This document shows positions 27,335 to 28,754 of a DNA stretch of 64,000 bases, piece by piece. Numbering within the stretch: the first letter of the stretch is position 1; the number at the start of each line of letters is the position of its first letter. The notes under the pieces were generated by a model, which saw only the letters and a list, made by a program, of their open reading frames with translations, was not told where the DNA came from and did not search any database. A program made the position numbers and the translations under genes. Source of the stretch: a virus; IMG/VR virus record IMGVR_UViG_3300033489_000513. One strand, 5' to 3'.

Positions 27335-27394
27335 TAACCTCACGAATAGTTTTGTAGGCAGAAACTTAAGGAAATATGATACGATCATTGGTCA
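27335..27394 (-). ncRNA. k-turn-closed guide-like sRNA kt4
   Basis: UGACC-AAU-GA-UCG [37 nt] CG-U-GA-GGUUA; separated from its promoter by the TnpB element. Confidence 0.7.
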
Positions 27395-27399
27395 ACGTT

Positions 27400-28728
27400 A
27401 TCAAATCCTAGCAAACTGCTAAAATATGTTTCATTCTGCTAGCAAAAGTCGATTGCATTGCTAGCGAATGGGGGACTAACGCCAGCCCCGCCCGTTCCTC
27501 AGCAAAGGCATTAGGAACTGCTTTTCTTAAAATATTGTACGCGCCATTGACATCCCCATTGAGATATTGTCCATTTGCTCGCCGAAAGAGGTTACATCTA
27601 ACTTTCTTCCCGTGGATGGAGATGCTCCGCAATCGCGTCCCAGAATAACTCGTGTGTTTTTCAATTGATTCGTTGTCTACAAACGAACACTTGGAAGTAT
27701 AACTCTCTTCTTGTTGAATAGATTGGAGGCCGACCAATTTCGCTTTGTACTCAATCATCTGAATCAATTTGGCAAAGGGGACTTGCACGAAATTCTGATT
27801 GTTTTTGTGCCCTATGTTAATCTCTTGCTTCCATTCAGGATTGTACCCAAACACAATTGTACCGATATCGTTCTGGATGCAATATTGGATGATCCACCGG
27901 GAAGTTTTATGGAAAACATCTTGGATTTGGTTATTCCGTTTCTTTAATATTCTCAACTGGTTCTGTGTTTGGAACTTGTATCCTTGTTTGTCTTTGATGC
28001 TTTGTAGTTTGCTGTTAATTTTGTTGCAGAATTGATTTATAGATTTTACAATCCCCCCCTTAACAACAATCGGTTGTTTCCCGATATTGTTTACAATAGT
28101 TGCGAGGTTGTTGAGTCCTAAATCAATCCCGATAACATTATCACGGTTTAACCCTAAATCCATTTCTGGAGCATTATAGATAATCTCAATGATATATCCA
28201 ATGCCTTGGGGAAGAATGCGGACTTGTTGATATTGTACAAGACGAGTTTTTATAGGCGGGAGATGACATTTCTTTGGGAAGCAGATATACCCGTCCTTTA
28301 GTCGCGTGTTCTGGTTGGTGAAAATGGCGATAGATTCCCCCTTCTTTTCCTTGTAATGGGGTGGTTTGGAGCATCCCAAAAACTTTGCTGGATTAATTTT
28401 ATATTCTTTTACTGCGGCAAAATATCCCTTCCAATTCTTCACCACCAAGTCCAGAATCTGTTGGGAGGTTTGGGCAGGCAATGCTTTGTAACACGCGGTA
28501 TTTTTGAGCATCACTTGTAGGTCGTAATAATTGACGAACTCGCCCAAGTTGAAGAAAAACTGGCGAAATTCAAAATTCGCCTCGTTATACAAGTTCTTTG
28601 CCAAGTGGCAGAGATGGGATAATTCAGGCGCTGTTTTGAGTTGAATTTGCTCAGTCAATTGCATCATTCATTTTTTCACTTTTTTGATGAATATCTTTCT
28701 TATTTTTAAAACTTTTTTAGGATTTAAG
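27400..28728 (-). mobile_element. non-autonomous IS200/IS605-superfamily (IS1341-like) TnpB-only element
   Basis: contains tnpB, no tnpA; TGAT at both junctions; removal restores promoter-to-kt4 spacing. Confidence 0.6.
27408..28667 (-). CDS. tnpB: RNA-guided endonuclease TnpB
   Basis: N-terminal KNLYNEAN, RuvC-I GIDLGLNNLA, QEESYTSKCS, RuvC-III NGDVNGAYNILRK. Confidence 0.92.
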   Translation of the reverse strand: MMQLTEQIQLKTAPELSHLCHLAKNLYNEANFEFRQFFFNLGEFVNYYDLQVMLKNTACYKALPAQTSQQILDLVVKNWKGYFAAVKEYKINPAKFLGCSKPPHYKEKKGESIAIFTNQNTRLKDGYICFPKKCHLPPIKTRLVQYQQVRILPQGIGYIIEIIYNAPEMDLGLNRDNVIGIDLGLNNLATIVNNIGKQPIVVKGGIVKSINQFCNKINSKLQSIKDKQGYKFQTQNQLRILKKRNNQIQDVFHKTSRWIIQYCIQNDIGTIVFGYNPEWKQEINIGHKNNQNFVQVPFAKLIQMIEYKAKLVGLQSIQQEESYTSKCSFVDNESIEKHTSYSGTRLRSISIHGKKVRCNLFRRANGQYLNGDVNGAYNILRKAVPNAFAEERAGLALVPHSLAMQSTFASRMKHILAVC

Positions 28729-28736
28729 ATCATATG

Positions 28737-28754
28737 TTGTGAGAATGATTTAAA
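28737..28754 (-). promoter_or_regulatory. class B promoter TTTAAA-TCA-TTCTCACAA (now upstream of tnpB)
   Basis: same motif that precedes the k-turn sRNAs. Confidence 0.6.

Follow-up and report, generated by a model that had tools for sequence, protein, structure and literature searches.

In the window analysed here (the whole 64,000-nt stretch of IMG/VR virus record IMGVR_UViG_3300033489_000513), a TnpB element lies between a viral promoter and a k-turn hairpin, kt4, and this separation of an orphan class-B promoter from a promoter-less hairpin, already proposed in the initial annotation, can be read in the sequence itself. We consider it probable, at roughly three chances in four, that this is a TnpB-only IS607-type element of a lineage common in Lokiarchaeia and Promethearchaeota, and that it is functional, as it appears to be, as an RNA-guided unit. 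It looks functional because its ORF is intact, its RuvC triad is complete, albeit rearranged, its scaffold is conserved and covarying, and its left end carries a TATA-like box. The features on which the argument draws are as follows:

28985 and 28820 (bulges), minus strand: two k-turn units, each with its own promoter in front.
28736-28754, minus strand: orphan class-B viral promoter, TTTAAAT (28754-28748) and TTCTCACAAC (28745-28736), read directly.
27395-28735, minus strand: IS607-family element, TnpB only, about 1341 bp, placed by blastn homology, with the left boundary at 28735 or 28733.
28668-28735, minus strand: left end of the element, 68 nt, beginning ATATGATCTTAAATCC (ATATGATC...), with a conserved TATA-like TTTTAAAAATAAG.
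28704-28725, no strand assigned: left arm of an inverted repeat, 22 nt, 77% complementary, including AAATCCTA.
27408-28667, minus strand: tnpB, 419 aa, probably beginning at the second ATG (28664), recognized by Pfam and alignment.
27403-27424, no strand assigned: right arm of the inverted repeat, including TAGGATTT.
27395-27560, minus strand: right end, terminating in ...TTTGCTAGGATTTGATAACGT, with the predicted omegaRNA/reRNA scaffold, which overlaps tnpB at its 3' end.
27375-27394, minus strand: predicted 20-nt guide TGACCAAUGAUCGUAUCAUA, placed by the guide rule and equal to the 5' stem strand, bulge and GA core of kt4.
27335-27394, minus strand: kt4 k-turn hairpin, with a TGACC/GGUUA stem, an AAU bulge and a GAUCG...CGUGA core.
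27141-27326, minus strand: orphan 61-aa ORF, whose start (27326) lies 8 nt past kt4 and which heads a run of small same-strand ORFs.

Read 5' to 3' on the minus strand, two k-turn units are thus followed by a third promoter, the tnpB ORF, kt4 and the 61-aa ORF. The third promoter reads TTTAAAT-CAT-TCTCACAAC (28754-28736) and has the architecture of the promoters of 11 k-turn units and of the ORF at 29038-29820, with no k-turn unit behind it, which agrees with the earlier description of an orphan class B promoter upstream of tnpB. For kt4, which had been described as having no adjacent promoter, no CTCACA element is present within the 70 nt upstream. The hairpin is one of 13 minus-strand units that have an (A/G)AU bulge and a GAUCG...CGUGA core in common, while their stems of 4-8 bp differ and stay complementary, so that the k-turn features of kt4 can be recognized from a common core and covarying stems. 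A promoter is present in 11 of the 13 units and absent in kt4 and in the unit at 8535; the CTCACAA motif occurs dozens of times in the window beside TATA-like boxes. The distance from octamer to bulge is 15-18 nt in all 11 intact units, the stems start 9-13 nt past the octamer (the ATG of the ORF at 29038-29820 lies 13 nt past it), and the last spacer nucleotides before the stem are AT in several intact units.

K-turn elements that bind L7Ae occur in archaea in C/D-box sRNAs and in mRNA 5' leaders. The kt4 hairpin resembles these in its C-stem, 3-nt bulge and tandem G.A and U.U geometry of the C/D type, in its position 8 nt before a start codon, and in that L7Ae is encoded by the probable host group (seen in L278), whereas its boxes are AUGAUCG and CGUGA, not RUGAUGA and CUGA, and it has no C'/D' boxes. 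An Rfam search returned no family for kt4, and a search of viral contigs for the promoter-plus-k-turn pattern gave single chance matches only. The 61-aa ORF behind kt4 has no Pfam match, no homologue except itself in 5.8 billion proteins and no relative among the viral contigs. The neighbouring ORF at 29038-29820 has relatives in 24 viral contigs, none of which contains CTCACAA promoters or k-turn units, and these relatives therefore provide no synteny.

The placement of both ends of the element drew on more than 20 related copies. On the right, the element ends at 27395 with ...GATAACGT (also written ...TTTGCTAGGATTTGATAAC-GT), after which the flank begins with TGACC. With lenient blastn scoring, the alignments of all 11 close loci stop at 27394-27397, and the close relative L186 aligns up to GATAACGT with no similarity past window position 27395. 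Loci L179 and L181, in which one element (P0009) with an identical TnpB is found in different contexts, agree up to and including ...TTTTAATAACAT and differ from the following base on; both this pair and a second pair with identical TnpB, L184 and L185 (P0006 element), part right after ...AATAACAT. Ten more Lokiarchaeial genome copies end in ...TAATAACAT (ATAACAT) and continue with the bases G, G, A, G, A, A, T, G, A and A, respectively. The crossover dinucleotides TA, TT and AC were also considered and rejected, as the flanks of the relatives vary directly after AAC-RT.

On the left, the P0009 element is seen beside three different flanks and begins ATATGGTATT (ATATGGTATTG), the common sequence running from ATATGG onward. 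Right behind the promoter octamer the window reads ATATGATCTT; the corresponding sequence is ATATAG in L178 and L186 and GTATTG in L176. The local alignment of the window to L178, another TnpB-only copy, starts at 28735. Judged from these sequences, the left end would lie at 28735, or at 28733 if the first AT belongs to the flank, an uncertainty of 2 nt (L277 is exceptional and lacks the RTAT start), since by conservation alone a terminus and a strongly preferred target motif are not fully separable at this end. The left flanks of seven independent insertions have nothing in common before the RTAT terminus and TGAT lies within the left end, both of which argue against a fixed TAM of 4-5 nt abutting the left end. 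The junction dinucleotides are AT...AT in the P0009 element and L178, GT...GT in L176, and AT...GT in the window and L186, and the window element is flanked by no target duplication. It has been reported that IS607 elements recombine at matching dinucleotides (PMC10711439). For a serine recombinase, differing junction dinucleotides are unexpected; the AT/GT mismatch could represent a G.T mismatch tolerated at integration, or a copy that has lost the ability to excise.

With these ends, the element would have landed so as to abut TTCTCACAAC of the viral promoter on one side and the first stem base of kt4 on the other. Its precise excision leaves CTCACAAC-(AT)-RT-TGACC, with 7-9 nt from octamer to bulge versus 15-18 nt in the 11 intact units, a spacing that by geometry would place the start site inside the k-turn core and that does not restore a canonical unit, so the claim that the empty site can be reconstructed does not hold. 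Given that excision does not recreate a canonical unit, the element either entered an atypical site or had its flanks brought together by some later event of rearrangement. The second of these possibilities is that the two flanks were never adjacent, and that recombination of two element copies, or a nearby deletion, joined the promoter of one unit to the kt4 of another, which would account for the roughly 10 nt of spacer that are missing. The AT found before the stem in several units would be a natural target for recombination at an RT dinucleotide, and it suggests that the right junction alone is an ordinary insertion site. However, the window contains neither a second copy nor a solo end of the element, and simple insertion into an atypical site is also possible. 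We regard such a joining of flanks as possible, though less likely than not.

The assignment to IS607 is based on the relatives of the element. The closest proteins in the set of 5.8 billion are 70-74% identical, and the named ones are mostly from Lokiarchaeia or Promethearchaeota; searches of genome and metagenome contigs with TnpB gave mostly relatives at 48% identity or less, the single close match, L196, being the L176 locus. A Resolvase-type serine recombinase is encoded directly upstream of tnpB in L176, L180-L182, L184 and the P0010 contig, as well as in more distant genome copies, and tnpB stands alone behind a short left end in L178, L177, L183, L186, L277 and the window copy. No Y1/HUH transposase was found in the relatives examined, among which the transposase-bearing ones have Resolvase. 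A serine recombinase is absent from the window, where the left end extends only 68 nt to tnpB. Since the closest relatives have the serine recombinase directly upstream, the element is, judged by these relatives, of the IS607 type, and since TnpA is present in them and missing from the window, the window copy is a non-autonomous, TnpB-only derivative. Most likely, it would have been mobilised into the virus-like contig in trans, by the serine-recombinase TnpA of a host copy.

The element shares with IS607 TnpB elements, such as ISXfa1 (Yoon et al., NAR 2023, PMC10711439), the OrfB_IS605 and TNB domains, a serine-recombinase TnpA directly upstream in its closest relatives, a predicted structured RNA that overlaps the 3' end of tnpB and reaches the right end, short dinucleotide-type conserved termini, and the frequent occurrence of transposase-less copies. 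The window copy differs from them in lacking TnpA, in ending with the dinucleotide RT instead of GG, in carrying AT at one junction and GT at the other, and in its setting, an archaeal, Lokiarchaeia-linked virus-like contig. The ends themselves are also related to each other. The 22-nt imperfect inverted repeat (77%) is the longest in the region, and its perfect 8-bp core, AAATCCTA/TAGGATTT, is reached by 0.8% of end shuffles (P about 0.008); the 8-bp inverted repeat previously described just inside the ends is thus present, as part of a longer terminal repeat. The inner parts of the two ends (GATCTTAAATCCTA on the left, TAGGATTTGATAAC on the right) are inverted copies of each other, and a like symmetry is seen in relatives, for instance in L277 (GTTATCAA and TTGATAAC) and in the distant G136/G142 family, where AT abuts the inverted repeat directly at both ends. 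A distant G142/G136 copy is flanked by a 7-nt direct repeat, AAGATCC.

The TnpB protein matches the Pfam families OrfB_IS605 (PF01385, 8e-20) and Cas12f1-like_TNB (PF07282, 5e-9). Its active-site residues were assessed in an alignment of 12 relatives, with positions judged against a Cas12f alignment and the alternative-Glu definition of PMC10711439. D182, E321 and D372 are invariant in this alignment, so that the RuvC triad is complete but rearranged: G274 replaces the canonical RuvC-II Glu, and E321 is the alternative Glu, six residues ahead of C327, with which a degenerate zinc finger begins. TnpB clades with a rearranged RuvC-II have been described by Altae-Tran et al. (PNAS 2023, PMC10691335), and serine-recombinase-associated TnpBs with an alternative Glu, termed "Ealt, D-Phi-G", in PMC10711439. 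The window protein resembles these (PMC10691335; PMC10711439) in the Gly at the canonical Glu position, the alternative Glu six residues before the zinc-finger position, the DLG in RuvC-I, the degenerate zinc finger and the serine recombinase association, and differs in that its clade retains a single finger Cys and its subclade has a 10-residue insert.

Much of this evidence also bears on whether the element could be a decaying relic, having the same boundaries, which is immobile, has no active TnpB-RNA function and is tolerated between the promoter and kt4. The mismatch between the junction dinucleotides AT and GT, the lack of TnpA in the window, where the element is present as a single copy with no second copy or solo end, and the disrupted reading frame of its close relative L186 (75% identical to the window element in DNA) are all consistent with decay. 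On the other hand, the ORF of the window copy is full length and keeps each invariant residue of the family, and its scaffold hairpins are intact and fit a covarying consensus. A relic is accordingly unlikely in our judgement, and the element is better read as an apparently intact TnpB unit of the IS607 type.

The hairpins occupy the last ~130 nt of the element, where the scaffold of a right-end guide RNA would be expected. RNAalifold, applied to eight aligned relatives, predicts 32 pairs, nine of which show compensatory double changes, mainly in three hairpins at about 27518-27438, so that these hairpins have been kept by compensatory changes despite the coding overlap. An Rfam search returned no family for the right end. 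In TnpB systems, the guide starts right after the right end (PMC10711439). By this known mechanism, the right-end RNA of the window element would have the flank, TGACCAAUGAUCG..., as its guide. The prediction that the guide coincides with the kt4 scaffold is retained in so far as the guide would be the 5' strand of kt4, and is amended in its start, which shifts by 5 nt to the first stem base. Within the window, the predicted guide is unique at up to three mismatches; therefore, other k-turn units would not be targets. It may be expected that TnpB would cut IS-free copies of this locus beside a short motif composed of the left flank and the RT dinucleotide, and such cutting would favour retention or homing of the element.

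The left end has a conserved TATA-like box of its own, which is also present in L178. Judged by its spacing, the orphan promoter would have its start site in the left end, some 10-13 nt beyond the octamer, and transcription from it now probably begins about 10 nt into the element. In turn, kt4 and the small ORFs behind it would have to be transcribed by read-through, or from a TATA-like box that happens to lie in the right end. A TATTTTA is found there, 32 nt before TGACC, as a consensus-level match in AT-rich DNA; at roughly the distance required, it might provide kt4 with a separate start site.

The overlap between guide and hairpin raises the question of whether the virus makes use of it. 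Such co-option would mean that the virus employs a fusion of promoter, TnpB, scaffold and kt4, for example as an L7Ae-bound guide RNA, or that TnpB loads other k-turn RNAs. The geometry agrees with this, as the first stem base of kt4 is also the first base of the predicted guide and the element is co-oriented with the viral promoter and placed just behind it, and position is the one support for the "possible step to co-option" suggested in the initial annotation. To our knowledge, every TnpB insertion takes its guide from its own flank. The overlap can be attributed to the landing site and needs no special explanation; it would be a by-product of where the element came to rest. Furthermore, the shared nucleotides can either act as guide or fold into the k-turn, but not both; in none of the relatives examined is the right end followed by a k-turn; among the k-turn units of the window, kt4 alone matches the 20-nt guide; and the retained nuclease triad is typical of selfish rather than domesticated copies. 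Co-option by the virus is hence very improbable, and we would give equally little credence to the related idea that a single transcript from the viral promoter fuses the guide scaffold to the k-turn leader as an L7Ae-capped guide or an RNA-guided switch. If true, the switch would couple TnpB loading to the small-ORF operon behind kt4, and the fusion would represent an early domestication of TnpB by an Asgard-archaeal virus; a functional guide/k-turn fusion would be a new kind of guide-RNA architecture.

A different model of the element had been put forward in the initial annotation, in which an IS200/IS605 (ISDra2-like) element is inserted 3' of TGAT/TTGAT, with ends at 28728 and 27400 and a guide AACGUUGACC..., and in which precise excision restores a canonical 18-nt spacing from promoter to kt4. 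Two further features are relevant here:

28729-28732, minus strand: TGAT proposed as the left junction, lying inside the left end and not at a junction.
27400-27403, minus strand: TGAT proposed as the right junction, contained in the conserved motif TTGATAAC(R)T, with the true end 5 nt further out.

The two TGAT copies do exist at the positions proposed, 28732-28729 and 27403-27400, but both lie inside ends that are conserved in relatives. On the right, the five nucleotides AACGT and the motif TTGATAAC (or, in some relatives, TTAATAAC) belong to the conserved part of the element in more than 20 related copies whose flanks are unrelated, and on the left ATATGAT matches the terminus of related elements. 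Deletion of 27400-28728 does give 17 nt from octamer to bulge (18 by the measure used originally), typical of intact units; however, in the resulting CTCACAACATATGAT|AACGTTGACC, 12 nt of this spacer are element DNA, seven from the left end and five from the right, and the junctions are 5-7 nt off on each side. When the ends were shuffled, 17% of the shuffles yielded a 4-nt direct repeat that restored the 15-18 nt spacing equally well, so the TGAT pair is no better than chance. Exact searches of viral contigs for this empty site and for the 5' part of kt4 gave no match. Among Logan contigs of three soil runs compared with 26000-30200, one of 27.7 kb extends across the element and none joins the flanks without it, such contigs being assemblies that drop rare variants. 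Neither an IS-free allele nor a syntenic relative thus turned up in the viral contigs, the protein set or the soil contigs searched.

ISDra2, a member of IS200/IS605, has a Y1 transposase, moves by single-strand "peel and paste", carries subterminal hairpins and inserts 3' of TTGAT. The window element resembles it in having an RNA-guided TnpB nuclease with a guide taken from the DNA flanking the right end, whereas none of those four traits holds for it. The relatives carry serine recombinases and not Y1 transposases; the left end shows no detectable hairpin, its fold of -5.6 kcal/mol (z -0.36) being no better than shuffles; and the ends pair as an inverted repeat with each other instead of forming subterminal hairpins. 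Together with the rearranged RuvC-II, and given that TTGAT is internal to the conserved right end, the serine recombinases of the relatives speak against the analogy drawn to the ISDra2 TAM. An ISDra2-like insertion with the ends first proposed thus has hardly any likelihood left, and the case illustrates that a short direct repeat and a rebuilt site that falls "in range" are weak evidence for transposon junctions.

The genomic context of the IS607-type element links the contig to a probable host group. The window encodes many small orphan same-strand ORFs, a T4-type RNA ligase, a Ro-like DUF2828 protein, an ArdC-like protein and a PCNA that is 84-86% identical to chromosomal PCNAs of Promethearchaeota genomes. 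The matching PCNAs sit among genes for primase, GINS and ribosomal proteins; they were considered as possible related viruses and rejected as such, these being host chromosomal loci. A host genome with the matching PCNA holds only a fragment of TnpB. From the PCNA match to Promethearchaeota, the contig can be taken as virus-like, or as an extrachromosomal element of another kind, with a Lokiarchaeia-type host. Members of the TnpB family and a gene for L7Ae are likewise present in this host group.

An apparently intact, serine-recombinase-associated TnpB unit with a rearranged active site is now documented in a Lokiarchaeia-linked virus-like element, which suggests traffic of TnpB elements between Asgard hosts and their mobile elements. 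The ends of this archaeal IS607-like lineage, ...GATAAC-RT on the right and RTAT... on the left, are now placed to within 2 nt and provide a basis for work on its TAM and guide RNA.

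At 12329-13204 the window encodes a PCNA that shares 84-86% identity with PCNAs from Promethearchaeota chromosomes and, as called, carries an N-terminal extension of about 28 residues. This is an indication that the virus-like contig acquired the gene recently from the host lineage.

Alignment of the window's TnpB (27408-28667) with 12 relatives (alignment A1) reveals several features that are common to the whole Lokiarchaeia-linked clade, namely Gly where RuvC-II canonically has Glu, an alternative Glu located six residues ahead of the finger, and replacement of the C4 zinc finger by KCSF...H, with a single conserved Cys. 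The subclade containing the window's TnpB has an additional 10-residue insert in this alignment, and its C-terminal tail is encoded by the hairpins of the predicted guide RNA.

At the DNA level the window element is closest to L186:1501-2771 (75% identity), with which it shares the end dinucleotides AT (left) and GT (right). The L186 tnpB is called 35 residues short owing to a frame disruption near its 3' end, and this is therefore probably a decaying copy. A distant IS607-type copy, represented by L288+L304 (G142:C274) and L305+L291 (G136:C108), has AAGATCC on either side, arranged as ...GAAGATCC-AT-[element]-AT-AAGATCCC... A 7-nt flanking repeat of this kind is unexpected for serine-recombinase insertion.

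The right end of the window element, which abuts the promoter-less k-turn hairpin kt4, contains the following feature:

27424-27431, minus strand: TATTTTA, a TATA-like heptamer

It lies upstream of kt4, 32 nt from the first stem base, close to the 28-30 nt of intact k-turn units, and could be the source of an independent kt4 start site. TATTTTA is missing from the right ends of relatives, which read AAATTTTA in L186 and AGTTTTA in L176.

The ORF at 29038-29820 begins with an ATG 13 nt past the CTCACAAC octamer of its class-B promoter (29820-29853, minus strand), which suggests that its mRNA is leaderless. Since the k-turn stems begin at this same distance from their octamers, the two together provide an internal start-site calibration for class-B promoters.

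Of the 13 k-turn hairpins (8486-44535, minus strand), at least 8 have an ORF of 60-170 aa on the same strand that starts 8-60 nt downstream; in a compact genome, chance would be expected to produce part of this proximity. Examples of these starts are:

27326, 21885, 41924, 40444, 35215 and 33572, minus strand: starts of ORFs behind k-turn hairpins

Instead of being free-standing small RNAs, the hairpins may form the 5' leaders of mRNAs, and as leaders they would possibly place these mRNAs under the control of L7Ae.
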